From the NCBI RefSeq assembly GCF_002854065.1, contig NZ_CP024147.1: 64,000 nucleotides of DNA; one strand, written 5' to 3'. How positions within the stretch are numbered: the first letter of the stretch is position 1; the number at the start of each line of letters is the position of its first letter. The translations under genes were made by a program, and so were the position numbers. Shown piece by piece: positions 32,157-41,839 of the stretch. The DNA comes from Escherichia coli (lineage in GTDB: Bacteria > Pseudomonadota > Gammaproteobacteria > Enterobacterales > Enterobacteriaceae). The notes under the pieces are model-generated. The model saw only the letters and a list, made by a program, of their open reading frames with translations. It did not search any database and was not told the DNA's origin.

Positions 32157-32660
32157 TTATTGATAGTGTTTTATGTTCAGATAATGCCCGATGACTTTGT
32201 CATGCAGCTCCACCGATTTTGAGAACGACAGCGACTTCCGTCCCAGCCGTGCCAGGTGCTGCCTCAGATTCAGGTTATGCCGCTCAATTCGCTGCGTATA
32301 TCGCTTGCTGATTACGTGCAGCTTTCCCTTCAGGCGGGATTCATACAGCGGCCAGCCATCCGTCATCCATATCACCACGTCAAAGGGTGACAGCAGGCTC
32401 ATAAGACGCCCCAGCGTCGCCATAGTGCGTTCACCGAATACGTGCGCAACAACCGTCTTCCGGAGCCTGTCATACGCGTAAAACAGCCAGCGCTGGCGCG
32501 ATTTAGCCCCGACGTATCCCCACTGTTCGTCCATTTCCGCGCAGACGATGACGTCACTGCCCGGCTGTATGCGCGAGGTTACCGACTGCGGCCTGAGTTT
32601 TTTAAATGGCGGAAAATCGTGTTGAGGCCAACGCCCATAATGCGGGCGGTTGCCCGGCAT
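32157..32660 (-). CDS. insB: IS1 transposase InsB (expressed as InsAB' fusion by -1 frameshift)
   Basis: ORF track 167 aa [16 protein letters not shown]...KHYQ matches IS1 InsB. Confidence 0.93.
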
Positions 32661-32854
32661 CCAACGCCATTCATGGCCATATCAATGATTTTCTGGTGCG
32701 TACCGGGTTGAGAAGCGGTGTAAGTGAACTGCAGTTGCCATGTTTTACGGCAGTGAGAGCAGAGATAGCGCTGATGTCCGGCAGTGCTTTTGCCGTTACG
32801 CACCACCCCGTCAGTAGCTGAACAGGAGGGACAGCTGATAGAAACAGAAGCCAC
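32579..32854 (-). CDS. insA: IS1 InsA (transposition inhibitor / N-terminal part of transposase)
   Basis: ORF track 91 aa [42 protein letters not shown]...; A6C slippery motif (plus gtttttt 32597-32603) in the insA/insB overlap. Confidence 0.93.
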
Positions 32855-32909
32855 TGGAGCACCTCAAAAACACCATCATACACTAAATCAGTAAGTTGGC
32901 AGCATCACC

Positions 32910-32918
32910 CCTGTATCG
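32910..32918. repeat. Right copy of 9-bp IS1 target-site duplication (CCTGTATCG)
   Basis: Identical to 32133-32141. Confidence 0.9.
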
Positions 32919-32992
32919 TTCTTAATGAGCAGTCTACTTATATTCATATAATCAATGAATATTAATCAATATATAATACATAGGGAATGTAA

Positions 32993-33160
32993 ATGAACAA
33001 ATTTATTAAAGTTGCACTGGTAGGTGCAGTACTGGCTACGTTAACTGCATGTACTGGTCATATTGAAAACCGTGATAAGAACTGCTCTTACGACTACCTG
33101 CTGCACCCAGCAATTTCTATTTCTAAAATCATTGGCGGTTGCGGTCCTACTGCACAGTAA
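32993..33160 (+). CDS. yhfL: Small lipoprotein YhfL (55 aa)
   Basis: Manual translation MNKFIKVALVGAVLATLTACTGHIENRDKNCSYDYLLHPAISISKIIGGCGPTAQ with lipobox LTAC; not in ORF track because shorter than 60 aa. Confidence 0.75.
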   Translation: MNKFIKVALVGAVLATLTACTGHIENRDKNCSYDYLLHPAISISKIIGGCGPTAQ

Positions 33161-33201
33161 GTCTCTGACAGAAATCAGCTAACACCGGTTTAATTGCCCG
33201 A

Positions 33202-33236
33202 CGCCCTCTGGATTTTCCGAGGGCGTATTTGTTTCT
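33202..33236 (+). terminator. Rho-independent terminator after yhfL
   Basis: cgccctc...gagggcg stem followed by tatttgtttct. Confidence 0.55.
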
Positions 33237-33266
33237 GCATTCTTTTCGAAAACATCATTCACAAGA

Positions 33267-34352
33267 TTAAATACTGGCAATACTCTCACGCAAAATCCGC
33301 AGCACCGTCTCTTCACCGCTGCGATTCGGGTTAATGCGAATCGCACAATGTTCGAGTTGCGGATTCGCCTGGCGGAACGTTCCGGAAAGGCGATAAAAGA
33401 GCGGCGGGATTTCATATTTCGACTCTGCACCGACCGGGTAAGGCAACGCGCCACGCTTTTGCGCTTCTTCCAGCACCCTGGCGGCAATCGGCTGATGAAA
33501 CTCGACAATCAACACCTTCGACTGCGCATTGGCAATGACGGCGCTTTTCACTTCCGGCACTGCACCACCGTTGAGCAAAGCCAGCAACCGTTCAGATACC
33601 CCTGCCTGCACCGCGTGCATCACTGGCGCGAACACCAGCCCACGCAACACTTCCAGCGCCTGTGAGCCCTGGATCTGGCTGCCGCCGGAGTAAAGCGTGG
33701 CGCGAATCCGACTAATAACATCGGCATCGCCAACCACTGCACCAACGCCCTCCGGCCCAAACAGCTTGAAGCAGGAGAATGTCGAGACATTCGCGCCGCA
33801 TTCACAGCCGATTCGCGCCACCTTCATCACCGCATAGTTGTCATCGGTTAACGCTGGAACACCTGCCGCGCGCAACGTTGCCAGCACATCTGCCAGCACA
33901 TAGCTGTCCTGCGGCTGCTGGCGCGTATGCTGCACCAGCGCGGCATCAGGTTGTTGCTCGTCGACGACCTGCTTCAGTGCCGACAGGGCATTGAAATCAG
34001 CAGTAATAAGCGTCAGCCCCATCTGCTCAATAATAACCCGTGTCGTTGGGTAAACAGGCGCGTCATGCACCAGAAGACGCTGCCCCGGTTTGAGCAAAGC
34101 CGCCAGCCCGGCGCGAATCGCGCCAGTCCCCGCGCCCTGCACCAGCGCCGCCGCTGGTGCATGAAACGCATCTGCCAGCACCTGCTCCACCCGCTGGGTA
34201 ATGCGCGGTTGATTCAACCCTGGAGTTAACCCTAAATCACCGCCAGTAAGAAACTCGCTGCCGGGGAAATGGCGGCAGATGGTGTCCACCAGCGCAAACT
34301 GCTTTTGCTGCGCTTCATTAAGCGTCAGGCTTTGCAGAGGAAACGTCTTCAT
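33267..34352 (-). CDS. yhfS: Putative PLP-dependent enzyme YhfS
   Basis: ORF track 361 aa; last gene of the yhfZ-yhfS cluster. Confidence 0.85.
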   Translation of the reverse strand: MKTFPLQSLTLNEAQQKQFALVDTICRHFPGSEFLTGGDLGLTPGLNQPRITQRVEQVLADAFHAPAAALVQGAGTGAIRAGLAALLKPGQRLLVHDAPVYPTTRVIIEQMGLTLITADFNALSALKQVVDEQQPDAALVQHTRQQPQDSYVLADVLATLRAAGVPALTDDNYAVMKVARIGCECGANVSTFSCFKLFGPEGVGAVVGDADVISRIRATLYSGGSQIQGSQALEVLRGLVFAPVMHAVQAGVSERLLALLNGGAVPEVKSAVIANAQSKVLIVEFHQPIAARVLEEAQKRGALPYPVGAESKYEIPPLFYRLSGTFRQANPQLEHCAIRINPNRSGEETVLRILRESIASI

Positions 34353-34363
34353 AGGTGCATTCC

Positions 34364-35668
34364 TTAAGCCGGAATAAACAGGCCAAACCAGTAAAGAACA
34401 TTCAGCAGGATGCCGGTGATCATTACTGCCACGACCGGTGCCGCCATTTTCTGTACCGGACGGCCCAGGGATTCGTTGAGGAAGTAAATGGCAACCGCGA
34501 TAGAGAATCCGGTATAACCCGCCATCTTAATTGCTGCGAAAATCGAACCGACCAGCAGCGCCACTTCCATCAGCATATTCATGGCGTTACGGATGTTATC
34601 CGACGCATTACGCACCGACGGGTAGCGTCCCAGCCATTTGCCGATAGAACGAAGCAGCAAGACTTCCGCCGAAATAACCACTGCGCCTAATACCGCTGCA
34701 ACCATCGGATTCGGCGAGAGATAGCCCACCGCATAAACAAAGGTAAAGCCCGCAACTGCATACACACCCGTTGCTAAGGCGGTGGTGGCAATCAACGGTA
34801 CAAAACCCAGCCCGCGCATAAATTCTGCCAGTGCCGCCTGGTTGATCAGCGTTTGCGATTGTTCCGGCGTTACGCCTGCGGAATATGCTTTCTCAAGGGT
34901 GAAGATCGACACTTCACTGCCAGCAAAAATCTTCATGCTGGCAACGGCGGCAATCAGCGCCCCTACAATAGCGATATACGGTAAGTTTTTGATAATCCGC
35001 GACGTGCGTTCTTCAAACACCGAAAGCCCGCTGGCATCGATGTCATTTTCATCACGATGACGCAGGTCGTGAGTTATCGCGATCCCCAGCAGCATCACCA
35101 TGCCAATAAAGATTTCGATGGATTCAGGGTTAAGATGTGGGAAATAGCGCACGACTACCACACGGGTCATCAGAACAACCACGGCGGCGACCAGACTTTG
35201 CTTCCAGCCAAACTGGTAGAAAATCGCCACCAGCGGGAACAGTGCAAAAGCAGAAACCACCGGCGAGCTTAATTCCCCGAGGCTACCTAATACATCCACC
35301 GGCAGCGCGGTCAGCAGCTGGTTTACTGGCAACAGGCAAGTAAGGATCAACACGCCCCAGATAGCGCCAAGACCAAACGCCATCAGGCTGTTTATCGCCA
35401 GTACGCCGAGGATATCGGTAGGAAGAAAGAGTAACCATGCGTTTAGCAGCCCGGTTTTCAGGGTAAAAGAGATCCCCACCGAGGCCACAAAACCAATGCT
35501 CAGACCAAAAGCGATACTCCCCGCCTCGCGACGGTTCATATAGCCTTCAATCAGTTGCGGCAGGATCGGGCGGATGCCGTCATGAAAAACAGCCGCCGAG
35601 CGATGCGCCAGAAGCGATGTCATACCCGTCAGGCACGCCACCACGATAATCTGAATATACAGATCCAT
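34364..35668 (-). CDS. yhfT: Inner-membrane transporter-like protein YhfT
   Basis: ORF track 434 aa, highly hydrophobic multi-TM protein. Confidence 0.85.
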   Translation of the reverse strand: MDLYIQIIVVACLTGMTSLLAHRSAAVFHDGIRPILPQLIEGYMNRREAGSIAFGLSIGFVASVGISFTLKTGLLNAWLLFLPTDILGVLAINSLMAFGLGAIWGVLILTCLLPVNQLLTALPVDVLGSLGELSSPVVSAFALFPLVAIFYQFGWKQSLVAAVVVLMTRVVVVRYFPHLNPESIEIFIGMVMLLGIAITHDLRHRDENDIDASGLSVFEERTSRIIKNLPYIAIVGALIAAVASMKIFAGSEVSIFTLEKAYSAGVTPEQSQTLINQAALAEFMRGLGFVPLIATTALATGVYAVAGFTFVYAVGYLSPNPMVAAVLGAVVISAEVLLLRSIGKWLGRYPSVRNASDNIRNAMNMLMEVALLVGSIFAAIKMAGYTGFSIAVAIYFLNESLGRPVQKMAAPVVAVMITGILLNVLYWFGLFIPA

Positions 35669-35679
35669 AGTCGTGCCTT

Positions 35680-36033
35680 TTATTTCAGATGGTTAATCAG
35701 CATCGGAATCGCGTGTTCGACGTGCTCAACGGAAAGGCCAAACGCCACTTTTCCTTCAGCGATCATTTTGGCGATATGCTCGTCTTTCGCTTTAATGCCT
35801 GGTTTGGCAATGGTGCAACTTTTGTTATAGCCAATCACCGCGATGGCAATCGACAATGCCGCGCCCGCACCGGTATTACACGCGCCGATGTAATAATCCA
35901 GTTGCCCGGATTTCACCTTCATTGCCGCTTCCATGTCGTTGTGAATGAAAACTTCAAAACAGCCAGGAGCCGTCGCTTCAATAGTTTTTTTAATCTGCTC
36001 ACGCTGTAAGCCTGCAACGCCAATCTTTTTCAT
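35680..36033 (-). CDS. yhfU: Uncharacterized protein YhfU (117 aa from MKKIGVAG)
   Basis: ORF track 130 aa; start chosen at internal Met to avoid overlap with php; alternative start 36072. Confidence 0.8.
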   Translation of the reverse strand: MKKIGVAGLQREQIKKTIEATAPGCFEVFIHNDMEAAMKVKSGQLDYYIGACNTGAGAALSIAIAVIGYNKSCTIAKPGIKAKDEHIAKMIAEGKVAFGLSVEHVEHAIPMLINHLK

Positions 36034-36043
36034 GAGTCTGTCC

Positions 36044-36922
36044 TTATTGGAAAAATTGAGAGGGATTTTCACGTAACATCACATCCACATCGGCCTGACT
36101 GAATCCTGACTGGCGCAATTGCGGAATAAAGGTGGTTAGTAAATAGTCATAGCCATAACCACCGTTGGCTTTTAAATGGGAGCGGCGCGTAATATCCATC
36201 GACAGCATGACGCGGTTCAGCAACCCACGGTCGCGTAGCGCATGAAGCATCGCAATACGCTTTTCGTCCGGGTAGTAACTGTTCTTACCAATGGTGTCGA
36301 ACTGCACATACGCGCCGAGATCGATCATCTTCAAAATGTTGTCGAGGTTGTCTTTCAGATCGCAGTGACCAACGGTGACGCGCGAAAGATCAACTCCGTG
36401 GGCTTGCAACAAAGCCAGTTGCTCCAGCCCCATCGTGCTGAACGACGTATGCGTGGAGATCGGGCGTCCGGTCTGGTTATGTGCCAGCGCGGCGGCAATA
36501 AATACCTTCTCTTCCAGCGGCGTAATCTTCCCTTCGCTGGAGCCGATCTCCGCGATGATCCCGGCTTTCAGTTCCGTGCCATCGATACCCTGCTCAATTT
36601 CATCGACCATCTCCTGCGCCAGTTCCTGCACGCTGCGGGTCGCCACATGTTCCGGGAAAAACGCGTCCTGGTAATAACCGGTACAGGCCACCACGTTGAT
36701 CCCCGTCTCGCGCATTACATCGAGCATAAATTGCGCATTGCGCCCCATGTAACGGTTGGTCATCTCAATCACATTACGCACGCCCCGGGCCATCAGGTCG
36801 TTCATCTCCTGGCAAATGAACGAATACTGATCAAGGCGGCAGTCCACGTTGTTTTTAAAGCCGGAGAGATCAATATGCAGATGCTCATGGGCGAGGGTGT
36901 AACCCGTCGGATCAAAACTCAT
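36044..36922 (-). CDS. php: Phosphotriesterase homology protein (amidohydrolase superfamily)
   Basis: ORF track 292 aa [32 protein letters not shown]... with metal-binding HxH motif. Confidence 0.9.
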
Positions 36923-38145
36923 AGGGTGTCTCCTGCAAACCGGAGGGAGGAAAGAAAAGAGCGACCATTTTGTGGCGGTGGCGCACGGAAAAATTCACAC
37001 ACGGTAGCCCCCACATCAGAAAGCGTGGTGCGCACACCGATCTGCGTAGTGACCAGCCCTTGCTGATAAACCAGCACTGGCACCACTTCACGGGTATGGT
37101 GGCTGTGACCAATGGTCGGATCGTTACCGTGATCCGCCATCACGACCAGGCAATCATCTGGCTGCATCGCCTCGACAAGCCGGGCAAGATTACGGTCAAC
37201 GACCTGCAAACGTTCGGCATAACTTGCGACGTCTTCTGCGTGACCAGCGAGGTCGGTTTCCTGAATGTTGGTGCAAATAAACGCTGTCTGATGGGTGATA
37301 AATTCGTCGAGGGTGATATCCATAATCCGCTGGCTATCCACCAGATTTTGCCAGCTCACGCCATAAGGATTGTTGACGATATCTGCCACCTTACCCACCA
37401 GCACGGTTGGCACGCCTGCTTCATACAGTTTTTGTGGCACCTGCACTTTTTCATCGACGCCATAGCCCATATGCACGACCTGGAAACCGTTGTCATAAGC
37501 GCCAGAACGCGGCGCATTAATACCAATAAAGCGCCCTTCTTTGCTTTCTGCGGCATCGAGAATACGCTGACTGTCGGTTAACAGGCCGCCAAATGTAATG
37601 ACCCGACCGACCTGTACCTGGTCACGCACGATACGACCAATTTTGATTGCGTCGTCAAAAGAGATCACAGAGAGATTGGCGGTAATGTTATAGACTTGGC
37701 CTAAATCCGCCTCGAGATTATCGCCAATCGCAACCGCCTGATTGACTCACAGAAATTGCAGTTCATCGCCACGGCGCTCCACCTGCCAACCGGCGGATAC
37801 TAATGCCTGCTCAACACGGTCAATCACATCGCGAAAGGGCATCCGCAGCGGCGGTAACGGGCGCGTGCCTAAAATTTCCTGATGCCCCATAAAGGTATCG
37901 CCACCTTCATGTTGCAGCTCTGCCACACCCCAGGTTGCGGAGTCTGACGGCTGCATATCACCTGGCGCATAACCCAATGCGTTGATTAGCCCCAGCTTCT
38001 CCAGCGTTGGTAGCTGCAAATGCGGCAGCTGGCTCAGGATGTGACCACAGGTATTCGCTCCGGCATCTTGCGGGCGCACCAGCGTGACATCTTTCATTGC
38101 ACCTACGCCAAAGCTATCAATCACTAACACCACAAATCGCGCCAT
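36919..38145 (-). pseudogene. yhfW: yhfW (phosphopentomutase-like metalloenzyme) interrupted by an in-frame TGA at 37747-37749
   Basis: ORF track gives a 132-aa N-terminal piece (37747-38145) and a 249-aa C-terminal piece (36919-37668); manual translation shows both are in the same frame with 26 sense codons between them, so a single TGA splits a 408-codon gene. Confidence 0.8.
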
Positions 38146-39308
38146 TACGCCTCCAGAGAGTTTCCAAGACTGTCATAACGACCGACAATTTCCGGTTCGC
38201 CACGCTGAATACCCGATACCAACACCACATCACTGCGGGTAACAAAAATCTGCGTACGAAAACAGAACACTACGGCACTACTCACCGGAAACTCGCCTGC
38301 TAACGGCAGGTAATAGTCGATACTGCTGTCATCCACAGTTTTGAGATTTGTTTCAGTAATCTTTTGATTTTCTGGCGTAAACACCAGCGCATGTTGCGCA
38401 TGACCACGACGGTAATAACCGCCGCCGTAGCAGTAGCTGTCGCCACGGAAATGGTGGGAAATTTCACTTAACCAAAGCATCGCGATACGTTCAGGCTGAT
38501 CGCCCTGCTGGTTTGCCGGAATTGTGCCCGTCAGCGCATGACCGGGTTCGGCATGAGTCACACCGTATTGCGCCAGCAATGGCAACGAAGTGCAGCTGGT
38601 CGCAGAAGGTGCGTTCAGTTGCTCAATCGCAATACCAGATTTCGCCAGTTGATCCCGTGCCTGTATCAGCGTGTGAAGATTCGGTGTCGGCAAAACTTTC
38701 CCGGCAGCCTCATCCCAAAGCAGGCAAGGGAAATGGGTTAGTCCGGCTAAATGCAGCCCCGGCAGTTTCTTAATTTCAGCAACCACCTCGTGCAGCGAAT
38801 GCTGTACAAAACCGCTCTCCTGCCCCGGATAAAGAAAATCATCGTCGCTATAAACTTTGAGCAGCACAGACTGGATTCGCCCGGCTTTCACCGCCGCCGC
38901 AGAAACTTCCCGCGCTTTGTCGAGAGTAAACACGGTGATGACGTCGGTGCCCTGTTCAACGGCGTCAGCAACCTGATGACAAGGGATTTGTACCAGATGC
39001 CCCTGATGCGCCACCGGCAAACCAGCGCGGCGCATGACTCGCGCCTCTTTGTAATCCACCGCCACAATGCCGCTGTAGCCCAACGCCAGCAGTTTTTCCG
39101 CCAGCCATGGGTTACGACCGAATTGTTTGGTCATCAGATACAGTTCAATGCCGTAAAGCCGCGCCGTCTCAATCTGCCGCTTACCGTTTTCCAGTATCTG
39201 ATCCACGTCGATCACCCAGCTGTCCGGGGCGATCTTGCCCTGCTGCCACAGACTTAAAGCGGCGGAAATCAGCGCCGGGTTCTGGCGTTTCAATGCTTCT
39301 ACAAACAT
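38145..39308 (-). CDS. yhfX: Alanine-racemase-fold (fold type III PLP) protein YhfX
   Basis: ORF track 387 aa [42 protein letters not shown]... Confidence 0.85.
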
Positions 39309-39391
39309 CTTGTTGCCTCGTTTCTGTTCCTTGAATTAAATATTCATTTTTTTGAATATTTAGATTGTGCGACGTGGATTTGCCGAATGCC

Positions 39392-39754
39392 TCAGATACT
39401 TTCGTTAGCAGCCATCCATAATCCATAAAGGTTGGCCAGCAAATAGCCTTCTTCACACGGGTTAACTTCCAGTGCGAATTCCTTCAACAACACCTGATGC
39501 AATTGCACAACGGCTTGCCAGTGGCTGGATTGCGCCAGCTCTGCCAGCAACTCGTTATCCAGTGGCTCAATTTCTTCACCACGGCGACTGCGCATCAGTG
39601 CACTCGCCATATGTGTCATCGCCATCGTTCCTTGCTCACTGCGCACCGGCAGATGGCACTCTGTTTCCAGTACCTTGACGACCTGCATCATGCCTTTGCA
39701 GATGTCCTTATCAATAACGCCTGCATCGCAAAGCAGGTTGAGTCTGGTTTCCAT
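39392..39754 (-). CDS. yhfY: Uncharacterized protein YhfY (120 aa from METRLNLL)
   Basis: ORF track 134 aa; internal Met chosen as start; alternative start 39796. Confidence 0.8.
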   Translation of the reverse strand: METRLNLLCDAGVIDKDICKGMMQVVKVLETECHLPVRSEQGTMAMTHMASALMRSRRGEEIEPLDNELLAELAQSSHWQAVVQLHQVLLKEFALEVNPCEEGYLLANLYGLWMAANESI

Positions 39755-39770
39755 ATCAGATGCCTTTCGT

Positions 39771-40676
39771 TTAATAACTCGGTTCCTGTTCCCCACTCAC
39801 CACCCGTTGTTGATGGGCGAGCAGGGCGTGTTTATCTACAACGGCACGCAGCAGTTGTTGCATTGGGTAATCATCGACTCGCGTCAGGACCACGGCTTCG
39901 GTGGCCTGTAAAAATCGCGGATCGTCTGTGAGCGGCGTCGCCTCTAATCCCAGCATGGTCAGTTCGTTTTCCGCCACCACGTTCCAGATAACCGCATCAA
40001 CATCGCCTTTAACAATGCGTTGTAAACTCTCGTGATAAGAGAGATCGACTCGTTCCACATCACTACCGCCAAAAAAGACATCAGTCATGATTTTCTGATC
40101 CGCCGAACGGTTATCCAGCCCCACGCGCTTCACGTTTGCGGACTCGCCTTTACGGCAAATCAACTGGTGCTCGCCAACGTAGGTGTGCGGCCCCAACTCC
40201 AGCGCGAGGCATAACCCTTTTTGCGTGAGATAACTTTCCGCCGCCAGTCGGGAAACCACCGCCATGTCATACACGCCGTTAAGTAAACACTCCACGCGAA
40301 TATCCGCGCCGCGCATATGCGCATAGTAAAAAGGAATGCCATCAAACTGGGCTTTCAATCCGCTCGCTAAACCTTCGTACAAGCGGGTATAGGGCAAAGG
40401 CATCGCACATACCACGTTGTTGATATCCACATGACTCAGCAATGCTTTGTTATCCATCTCGACCAGATAACTGCCATTGCGCCCACGGCGTTCAATCCGT
40501 ATCGCTCCGCTTGATTCCAGCGTTTTCAACGCGGCCTGCGTCAGGCCAACGGATGAACGGCATTCAGTGGCCAGTTCATCTATAGTTTTCAATCGGTTAC
40601 CGCACTTTTCACCCAACAAATAACGGGCCAGCGTCGTGATGACGACGCCTTCTTTTTTGATAAACGTTCGACGCAT
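39771..40676 (-). CDS. yhfZ: Putative regulator YhfZ (N-terminal HTH-like region)
   Basis: ORF track 301 aa; first gene of the cluster by position. Confidence 0.85.
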   Translation of the reverse strand: MRRTFIKKEGVVITTLARYLLGEKCGNRLKTIDELATECRSSVGLTQAALKTLESSGAIRIERRGRNGSYLVEMDNKALLSHVDINNVVCAMPLPYTRLYEGLASGLKAQFDGIPFYYAHMRGADIRVECLLNGVYDMAVVSRLAAESYLTQKGLCLALELGPHTYVGEHQLICRKGESANVKRVGLDNRSADQKIMTDVFFGGSDVERVDLSYHESLQRIVKGDVDAVIWNVVAENELTMLGLEATPLTDDPRFLQATEAVVLTRVDDYPMQQLLRAVVDKHALLAHQQRVVSGEQEPSY

Positions 40677-40792
40677 AATAAATTTTCAGTAAATTGAATA
40701 TTTATATCTTCAGGAATTTGAAGATAAGGCGCAACTGTGAGATGTGGAAACGGCGAGGCGCTTCACATTTTTTCGGATTATTGCAAATGAGG

Positions 40793-40820
40793 ATAAAAAA
40801 ACCGGGTTTCCCCGGTTTTG
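40793..40820 (-). terminator. Rho-independent terminator downstream of trpS
   Basis: ccggggaaacccgg stem followed on minus strand by T8. Confidence 0.7.
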
Positions 40821-40834
40821 GCATTAATGTTAAA

Positions 40835-41839
40835 TTACGGCTTCGCCACAAAACCAATCGCTTCGTACACCGCTTTTAGCGTACGGGAAGCGTGCGCGCT
40901 GGCTTTTTCTGCGCCGTCTTTCATCACCTGTTGCAGGAAGGCTTCATCGTTGCGGAAACGGTGGTAACGTTCCTGCAATTCAGTCAGCATACCGGAAACG
41001 GCATCAGCCACTTCACCTTTCAGATGACCATACATCTTGCCTTCGAACTGTTTTTCCAATTCCGGGATACTCTGGCCCGTTACCGCAGAAAGGATATCCA
41101 GCAGGTTGGAAACGCCCGCTTTGTTCTGCACATCGTAGCGAACTACCGGCGGCTCGTCGGAGTCGGTGACCGCGCGTTTGATTTTCTTCACTACCGATTT
41201 CGGATCTTCCAGCAGGCCAATAACGTTATTGCGGTTATCGTCAGACTTGGACATCTTCTTGGTCGGCTCCAGCAGCGACATTACGCGCGCGCCGGATTTC
41301 GGAATAAACGGCTCCGGCACCTTAAAGATATCGCCGTACAGCGCGTTGAAACGCTGGGCGATATCACGGCTCAGTTCCAGGTGCTGTTTCTGGTCTTCAC
41401 CCACCGGTACCAGATTAGTTTGATACAGCAGGATGTCCGCTGCCATCAGCACCGGATAGTCAAACAGACCAGCGTTGATGTTCTCGGCATAACGCGCAGA
41501 TTTATCTTTAAACTGCGTCATGCGGCTCAGTTCGCCGAAGTAGGTATAGCAGTTCAGTGCCCAGCCTAACTGCGCATGTTCCGGTACGTGGGACTGAACA
41601 AAAATGGTGCTTTTCTCAGGATCGATACCACAAGCCAGATACAAGGCCAGCGTATCCAGCGTCGCTTTACGCAGCTTCTGTGCATCCTGGCGCACGGTGA
41701 TCGCGTGTTGGTCAACGATACAGTAAATGCAATGGTAGTCATCCTGCATGTTTACCCACTGACGCAGCGCACCCATGTAGTTACCAATGGTCAATTCACC
41801 TGAGGGCTGTGCGCCACTAAAAACGATGGGCTTAGTCAT
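40835..41839 (-). CDS. trpS: Tryptophan--tRNA ligase
   Basis: ORF track 334 aa with TIGN (HIGH-class) and KMSKS motifs. Confidence 0.97.

Follow-up and report, generated by a model that had tools for sequence, protein, structure and literature searches.

Gene content and conservation of the yhf cluster

The yhf cluster is a long-standing group of y-genes of Escherichia coli K-12, and its existence is not new as it is annotated in E. coli genomes. In the 64,000-nucleotide stretch of E. coli contig NZ_CP024147.1 (assembly GCF_002854065.1) analyzed here and termed the window, the cluster occupied positions 33267-40676 in the order yhfS-yhfT-yhfU-php-yhfW-yhfX-yhfY-yhfZ, with all genes on the minus strand. 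The original prediction, made from the sequence alone, had described eight co-directional and tightly packed genes that looked like one operon and had no established substrate, and the open reading frames were recovered with exactly the predicted limits. Read from yhfZ to yhfS, the intergenic gaps measured 16, 83, −1, −4, 10, 11, and 11 nt; the overlaps and short gaps bore out the tight packing except between yhfY and yhfX, where the 83-nt gap held a conserved palindrome. Full-text literature searches returned no published substrate for the cluster, the matches being gene lists, Bacillus subtilis namesakes, and screens. A January 2026 paper still calls yhfW uncharacterized, and the Protein Data Bank (PDB) entries 4J8L, 4KBX, 2OZZ, and 1BF6/4LEF are titled as uncharacterized, hypothetical, or by homology only, such that all three sources agree with the predicted lack of an established substrate.

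At least 80% of the cluster was present in 5,058 of 5,426 complete E. coli genomes (approximately 93%), and the ratios of nonsynonymous to synonymous substitution rates (dN/dS) of all eight genes were 0.03-0.17 against E. albertii and 0.04-0.09 against Citrobacter, indicating from sequence comparison that every gene is under strong purifying selection. Together with the family and Pfam assignments given below, this distribution and the dN/dS values established that the genes are real and not chance open reading frames. The dS of yhfT against E. albertii (locus L028) was 1.12 compared to 0.28-0.74 for the other seven genes (approximately 1.5- to 4-fold), which may reflect recombination inside the cluster.

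One gene departed from the prediction of eight intact genes. yhfW (36919-38145, minus strand), encoding a phosphopentomutase-like metalloenzyme, was inactivated by an in-frame TGA at codon 133 (37747-37749) that changed tryptophan to a stop (W133*) and had previously been missed, and in E. coli strain 100416, whose sequence matches the window at 100% identity, RefSeq lists yhfW as a pseudogene (“internal stop”). The window therefore contains seven intact genes and one that was recently inactivated. Codon 133 was TGG elsewhere in Escherichia (TCG in one case), and the exact 61-mer carrying the stop was found in only 2 of the 5,035 complete E. coli genomes that hold the segment; the change is therefore a recent private nonsense mutation and not a sign of general decay. 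Selenocysteine insertion or programmed read-through at this TGA was rejected given the TGG (once TCG) in other genomes and the occurrence of TGA in two genomes only. Of the stop codons of E. coli, UGA is the most prone to leak, through misreading by tRNA-Trp, such that traces of wild-type YhfW are conceivable. The mutation is predicted to break the YhfW step, and with it the pathway, in the present strain and may also lower the expression of php-yhfUTS.

The pseudogene raises the question of whether the cluster has fallen out of use in E. coli and persists as a cryptic remnant. Inactivation of yhfW in the present strain, the lack of a reported phenotype, and the approximately 7% of complete genomes without most of the cluster would fit such a reading, but the privacy of the stop to 2 of 5,035 genomes, the strong purifying selection on all eight genes, and the conservation across genera of the operator-like palindromes and CRP-like site described below make it highly improbable.

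Genome neighborhoods, whose comparison had been suggested for the Enterobacteriaceae, were compared at approximately 95 loci encoding YhfT relatives at 24-99% identity and revealed a module conserved beyond this family and across phyla. The gene set Z-(Y)-U-T-P-(S)-X-W (letters as in the yhf names, P for php) recurred in varying order in the Enterobacterales, Vibrionaceae, Fusobacteria, and Firmicutes, with the order Z-Y-X-W-P-U-T-S in Enterobacteriaceae, Z-Y-X-P-U-T in most Yersinia, Z-Y-P-U-T-X-W in Vibrionaceae, U-T-X-W in Enterovibrio, and Z-(Y)-U-T-P-(S)-X-W in Firmicutes and Fusobacteria. Across these loci yhfU and yhfT were always adjacent, and in one genome (L010) the pair stood alone; yhfX and yhfW were nearly always adjacent, and yhfS was optional, being absent from the Yersinia and Vibrionaceae clusters. 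The minimal Enterovibrio loci (L071, L076, and L081) had no yhfZ, yhfY, or php nearby. Among the accessory neighbors, Thalassobacillus had NagB and a ComB-like phosphatase and Sebaldella an amidase-signature protein, and a fusion of YhfT with an amidase was also found.

In the RefSeq annotation of strain 100416 the cluster is flanked by cysG and yhfL on one side and trpS-gph-rpe-dam on the other, and the stretch is also identical in CUWW06. The fructoselysine operon frlABCDR sits between yhfL and yhfS in K-12-like strains (L004, L005, and L007) and is absent from the corresponding interval here (32993-33267); a direct yhfL-yhfS junction was found in 2,106 of the 5,426 complete E. coli genomes. 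Adjacency to frl was therefore rejected as a functional clue, the operon being absent both here and in 39% of genomes.

Folds and families of the encoded proteins

The predicted classes of YhfZ (a regulator), YhfX and YhfS (pyridoxal phosphate, PLP, enzymes), YhfW (phosphopentomutase-like), Php (a phosphotriesterase-homology amidohydrolase), and YhfT (a multi-transmembrane protein) were upheld by family models, solved structures, or profile searches, whereas YhfU and YhfY, formerly listed as small unknowns, could both be placed at the fold level. The regulator gene yhfZ (39771-40676, minus strand) codes for a GntR-like winged-helix protein with a YhfZ_C ligand-binding domain, scoring 373.8 bits against the NCBIfam GntR-type model NF041241 (YhfZ_full; cutoff 260) and carrying the Pfam domains HTH_41 and YhfZ_C. 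Its N-terminus resembles the winged helix-turn-helix domains of CodY, FadR, and GntR, and its C-terminal effector domain is that of PDB 2OZZ. A profile search of the effector domain against the PDB returned only 2OZZ and a glutamate-binding protein (E = 0.14) and pointed to no ligand class.

The adjacent yhfY (39392-39754, minus strand) codes for a stand-alone phosphotransferase system (PTS) regulation domain (PRD) protein of 120 aa. The E. coli protein matched Pfam PRD at E = 0.001, and 11 of 15 cluster-linked relatives did so at E ≤ 0.001 (best 3e-11). Residues H48, A52, R55, and E101 were invariant, of which H48 would be the phosphorylatable histidine of the PRD signature, while the second PRD histidine is an asparagine in the gamma-proteobacteria. 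A weak match was also obtained to TIGR03582, the EF_0829 PRD protein family. YhfY consists of the PRD only, with no attached RNA- or DNA-binding output domain of the BglG/LicT or MtlR/LevR types, and any output would therefore require a partner, for example YhfZ.

The presumed permease YhfT (34364-35668, minus strand) is a polytopic membrane protein of the rare YhfT family (PF10797), for which no solved structural relative and no homology to a recognized PTS EIIC family were found. The most distant relative sampled (L015 10001-11978, 24-26% identity) had no YhfU and was followed by a PNP_UDP_1 nucleoside phosphorylase, a neighbor that may point to the kind of substrate handled ancestrally by this transporter family. 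In the cluster itself, yhfT adjoins yhfU (35680-36033, minus strand), which codes for a 117-aa DUF2620 protein whose closest structures were RpiB and LacAB. YhfU keeps the Cys-x-Thr-Gly-x-Gly loop of this fold, with an invariant cysteine (C52) in the glycine-rich loop; in contrast, it is shorter than RpiB (approximately 149 aa), having no counterpart of the C-terminal helix through which the substrate phosphate is bound. A hidden Markov model comparison with RpiB aligned only the Cys loop (27 columns, probability 6%), no match to the RpiB/LacAB models of NCBIfam was obtained, and the precomputed Pfam assignment was DUF2620 only, such that YhfU shares the fold and Cys loop and falls outside the full-length RpiB/LacAB family. 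Two divergent DUF2620 proteins aligned over their full length, though weakly (E ~0.01), to TIGR03577, the EF_0830 “SFCGS” family.

Among the enzymes, php (36044-36922, minus strand) codes for a phosphotriesterase (PTE)-family binuclear-metal amidohydrolase scoring 654.6 bits against NF007373, with structures available as PDB 1BF6/4LEF. Its six metal ligands (H12, H14, E125, H158, H186, and D243) were invariant among the cluster-linked homologues, with E125 as the bridging ligand on the TIM barrel. This binuclear TIM-barrel center is common to Lmo2620-type phospho-sugar lactonases, phosphotriesterase-like lactonases, and PTER, and the glutamate bridging ligand is shared with PTER. With approximately 100 bits, Php fell far below the curated cutoffs of the two subfamilies of known substrate that were tested, OPH (500) and phospho-furanose lactonase (630), and belongs to neither.

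YhfW, considered as the intact family, aligned to the Bacillus cereus phosphopentomutase (PDB 3M8W) with all the motifs DS..GxG, GDTxxGH, D..GH, ADHGNDP, and HTRE present, including D10, the catalytic threonine nucleophile T84, and the Mn-binding Asp/His motifs. Its likeness to DeoB of the deo operon is thus in the catalytic residues, whereas the cap region has diverged and the score against TIGR01696 deoB (144 bits, cutoff 341) does not reach equivalog-level similarity; only the “phosphopentomutase” model PRK12383 was passed, with an end-to-end alignment (1-408 of 408).

The remaining two enzymes depend on PLP. The yhfX product (38145-39308, minus strand) is of fold type III, the alanine-racemase fold, with the Pfam domains Ala_racemase_N and YhfX-like_C, a solved structure (PDB 4KBX), and an invariant K61. 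Profile searches matched alanine racemase (3e-5, over part of the barrel only) followed by YggS and D-threonine aldolase, and the ornithine racemase model Orr gave 29 bits against a cutoff of 480, placing YhfX below equivalog-level similarity to a characterized racemase. The yhfS product (33267-34352, minus strand) is a fold-type I, gamma/beta-lyase-like enzyme (PDB 4J8L) with an invariant K196. Its best profile match was Met gamma-lyase (5e-11), then Cys/Met PLP enzymes, YnbB-type C-S lyases, and cysteine desulfurases; against the Cys/Met-family equivalog cutoffs of 440-666 it scored at most 35 bits, too low for assignment as a gamma-lyase or gamma-synthase.

Two alternative functions can be drawn from these families. 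In the first, the cluster would break down or detoxify an amino acid that is cyclic or N-acylated and carries no phosphate, with Php acting as an amidase, lactamase, or lactonase in the way that PTER acts on N-acetyltaurine, YhfX racemizing the released D-/L-amino acid, YhfS carrying out a gamma/beta-elimination, and YhfW having a side role. PTER, the animal member of the Php family, has been reported as an N-acetyltaurine/N-acyl amino acid hydrolase with a glutamate metal ligand, to which the invariant E125 of Php corresponds. Amidase-signature genes and the YhfT-amidase fusion accompany YhfT elsewhere, the nearest named families of YhfX are ornithine racemase or alanine racemase, and those of YhfS are Met gamma-lyase and the C-S lyases. 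However, such a pathway leaves unexplained the pairing of yhfX with yhfW, which are translationally coupled here by a 1-nt overlap, as well as the intact phosphotransfer machinery of the YhfW family, the PRD protein, and the PTS neighbors described below; furthermore, YhfS is dispensable in many lineages. An N-acyl or cyclic amino acid route is consequently considered unlikely.

The second alternative, a pathway for an unusual pentose or nucleoside-derived sugar, is doubtful. YhfT would be an ion-coupled carrier, YhfU a true RpiB-type aldose-ketose isomerase, and YhfW a true pentose 1,5-phosphomutase, while the PLP enzymes would act on an amino substituent (e.g., of an aminopentose or amino-pentonate) and the PRD protein would provide catabolite-type regulation only. 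The RpiB/LacAB structures closest to YhfU with their retained Cys-x-Thr loop, the conservation of every DeoB catalytic motif in YhfW, and the nucleoside phosphorylase adjoining the most distant YhfT relative are consistent with this pathway. The PTE-family enzyme Lmo2620 and its Mycoplasma relatives hydrolyze pentonolactone 5-phosphates, and Php weakly matches the NCBIfam phospho-furanose lactonase model. Against it, YhfU has the truncated length, missing C-terminal helix, and 27-column alignment given above, and what we take to be the Asp/His and phosphate-binding residues of RpiB could not be placed in it. An isomerase would also have no obvious reason to be invariably adjacent to YhfT, even in the stand-alone pair; the cluster encodes no kinase or phosphorylase; and the nucleoside phosphorylase neighbor was seen once, at a locus lacking YhfU.

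Candidate operators and transcription units

The control DNA of the cluster contained a distinctive palindrome, ATnTTCA-N6-TGAAnAT, with three exact matches in the 64 kb (0.00 expected), all of them in yhf control DNA. Upstream of yhfZ lie O1 (ATCTTCA-N6-TGAAGAT, 40706-40725), a candidate YhfZ operator, and O2 (ATATTCA-N6-TGAAAAT, 40682-40701), which ends 6 nt upstream of the yhfZ ATG; the third site, OX (39340-39359), lies between yhfY and yhfX, 31 nt before the yhfX ATG, and is a perfect palindrome (ATATTCA-N6-TGAATAT). A CRP-like TGTGA-N6-TCGCC (40752-40767, minus strand) followed by a −35-like TTGCGC (40729-40734) was also identified upstream of yhfZ. In a 14-genus alignment of this region, the blocks TGTGA-N6-TCnCC, TTGC, O1, and O2 were kept, with the TGTGA and the following TTG invariant; we infer that the former is a CRP site and the latter a −35 element. 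In the corresponding alignment of the yhfY-yhfX gap, OX and the ribosome-binding site were the sole conserved blocks.

The palindrome followed the module into other genomes. By manual tally, OX was present in approximately 40 of approximately 47 Enterobacterales loci, and sites of the palindrome class numbered 118 in the 1.8 Mb of fetched loci compared to 5 in shuffled sequence. In the Vibrionaceae, Sebaldella, and Clostridia, lineage-specific variants stand before yhfZ and before the first structural gene, the clostridial variant being ATATACA-N6-TGTATAT before yhfZ and before yhfU. Related palindromes were found before yhfZ in the Vibrionaceae, before yhfU in Enterovibrio, and as three copies in Sebaldella, and in three loci (L062, L069, and L011) a palindrome of this class lay approximately 30-45 nt upstream of neighboring Lac/Cel PTS genes. 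The Sebaldella locus (L074; 7048, 8024, and 8209) formed an unusually clean triplet: ATTTTCAAAATAATGAAAAT occurs there in three identical copies, which flank yhfZ and lie ahead of the PRD gene. In Enterovibrio, L071 and L076 carry an ATCTTCA-N6-TGAAGA-type palindrome approximately 200 nt upstream of yhfU.

The simplest reading of these sites suggests an operator set for YhfZ that controls two transcription units. This reading fits the operon table used in PMC4448311, which lists yhfX-yhfW-php-yhfU-yhfT-yhfS and leaves out yhfZ and yhfY. With an operator-like palindrome before both yhfZ and yhfX and an operon table that splits off the first two genes, the single operon of the original prediction is doubtful.

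Other elements at the borders of the cluster were delimited as follows. The post-trpS intrinsic terminator (40798-40819, minus strand; a 9-bp stem AAAACCGGG/CCCGGTTTT, then a T-run) is strong and marks the upstream limit of cluster transcription. The trpS-yhfZ spacer (40677-40834), approximately 290 nt long in K-12-like strains (L005), measures 158 nt here. Bacterial interspersed mosaic elements and repetitive extragenic palindromes (BIME/REP) are placed upstream of yhfZ in a published attenuator survey, and these repeats appear to be missing from the present strain. At the other end, a hairpin read directly from the sequence (CGCCCTC..GAGGGCG, 33202-33225) lies between the convergent yhfS and yhfL and was not flagged by the terminator scan. 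No Rfam match at E ≤ 1 was obtained in 32500-41500, giving no support for a known RNA element or riboswitch.

Phosphotransferase system links and proposed function

A connection to the PTS had not been noticed in the original prediction and emerged both from the PRD fold of YhfY and from the neighbors of related clusters. Lac/Cel-family EIIA, EIIB, and EIIC genes adjoin the cluster in approximately nine loci, including a metagenomic contig (L011) in which yhfW is followed by an EIIC gene, and in a Clostridiales genome (L086) a PTS Enzyme I gene, identified by reading the sequence and not by family search, directly follows yhfW. In the Vibrionaceae, a four-gene set of Lac/Cel-family EIIB-EIIC-EIIA and DUF7916 stands in varying orientation beside the yhf-like cluster (L062 4258-7153, L069 16442-19343, and L082 3127-6015, as well as L073, L075, and L083).

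The gene content also resembles that of the Enterococcus EF_0829-EF_0839-type cluster, which is itself uncharacterized and comprises SFCGS-DUF4312-DUF4311-DUF4310-amidohydrolase-DgaE-family PLP ammonia-lyase-KDPG aldolase, likewise with no kinase among its seven genes. Both place a small soluble glycine-rich protein (approximately 115-120 aa) beside one or more membrane proteins, an amidohydrolase-superfamily enzyme, and a PLP enzyme, and a PRD protein is presumably also a member of the Enterococcus cluster, as the TIGR03582 family name implies. The yhf cluster differs in having the single YhfT in place of DUF4310, DUF4311, and DUF4312, a PTE-type amidohydrolase, PLP enzymes that are of fold type III and Cys/Met-like instead of SelA/DgaE-like, and a phosphomutase in place of the aldolase. 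In Salmonella dgaABCDEF (D-glucosaminate) and E. coli ula (ascorbate), PTS phosphorylation on entry removes the need for a kinase, and the UlaG lactonase or the DgaE PLP ammonia-lyase acts next. By analogy, the logic of the yhf cluster may be similar, with a lactonase or PLP enzyme acting on a compound phosphorylated at entry, although dga and ula use recognized EIIA, EIIB, and EIIC components that the E. coli yhf cluster lacks, and the enzymes are unrelated in sequence.

The reading that we tentatively favor, at somewhat less than an even chance, is that the cluster is a substrate-inducible, YhfZ-repressed, probably CRP-assisted, PTS-linked catabolic module organized as the units yhfZ-yhfY and yhfX-yhfW-php-yhfU-yhfT-yhfS and acting on a phosphate ester. 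YhfZ would probably repress both units by binding at OX and at O1 and O2, the latter two overlapping the promoter region of yhfZ itself. The CRP-like site upstream of yhfZ suggests catabolite control, and YhfY, with its one invariant histidine (H48), would probably relay the PTS phosphorylation state to this control. YhfT and its obligate partner YhfU would form the uptake unit. The substrate is most likely handled as a phosphate ester, given that a phosphomutase but no kinase is encoded in the cluster and that relatives of Php act on phosphorylated lactones. In the proposed sequence of steps, Php would open a lactone ring or take off an N-acyl group, YhfX would carry out PLP chemistry (racemization, epimerization, or elimination) at the amino-bearing carbon, YhfW would shift the phosphate, and YhfS, where present, would release the amino group through beta/gamma-elimination. 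As for the compound itself, the class guessed as most plausible is that of phosphorylated amino-sugar acids or lactones, or else of N-acyl amino compounds.

Several observations weigh against this module as proposed. YhfZ is named as the palindrome binder solely from co-occurrence, and the Enterovibrio U-T-X-W loci carry a similar palindrome with no nearby yhfZ, so that the regulator is perhaps encoded elsewhere in these genomes. The promoter scan detected no sigma-70 consensus before yhfZ or yhfX, and promoter positions are therefore inferred; no terminator was found between yhfY and yhfX. Because the gap between these genes has neither a consensus promoter nor a terminator, a single transcript from yhfZ to yhfS with OX as an internal roadblock is equally possible. 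PTS neighbors occur in a minority of loci (approximately 10 of approximately 95), the E. coli cluster has no EIIA, and with an E-value of ~0.01 the homology of the small protein to SFCGS is weakly supported. Finally, neither the analysis nor the literature yielded a substrate, inducer, or phenotype for the cluster.

An extension of the PTS-linked module concerns uptake itself and is on balance unlikely. YhfT and YhfU, with the distantly related SFCGS/DUF431x sets, would constitute an unrecognized class of PTS-coupled group-translocating permease in which YhfU serves as an RpiB-fold phosphocarrier with C52 as the phospho-acceptor and YhfY passes a readout of transport to YhfZ. If true, this would define a new sugar-acid/amino-compound PTS family and an undescribed catabolic pathway.

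The yhf cluster is one of the larger enzyme gene blocks of E. coli to which no function is assigned, despite crystal structures for four of its proteins. To its description the present analysis adds the strain-specific pseudogene, the folds of YhfU and YhfY, the finding that YhfT has no structural relative, the conservation of the module in different phyla, its links to the PTS, and a precise set of candidate operators. These provide experimental handles in the form of three candidate operator sites, a likely two-unit organization with CRP input, the PRD protein and PTS neighbors, and an RpiB-fold partner of a membrane protein. Should PTS coupling prove true, the PTS, a system regarded as well catalogued, would gain a new permease family; if false, the cluster would still stand for a catabolic route not yet described, with possible relevance to marine or gut nutrients.

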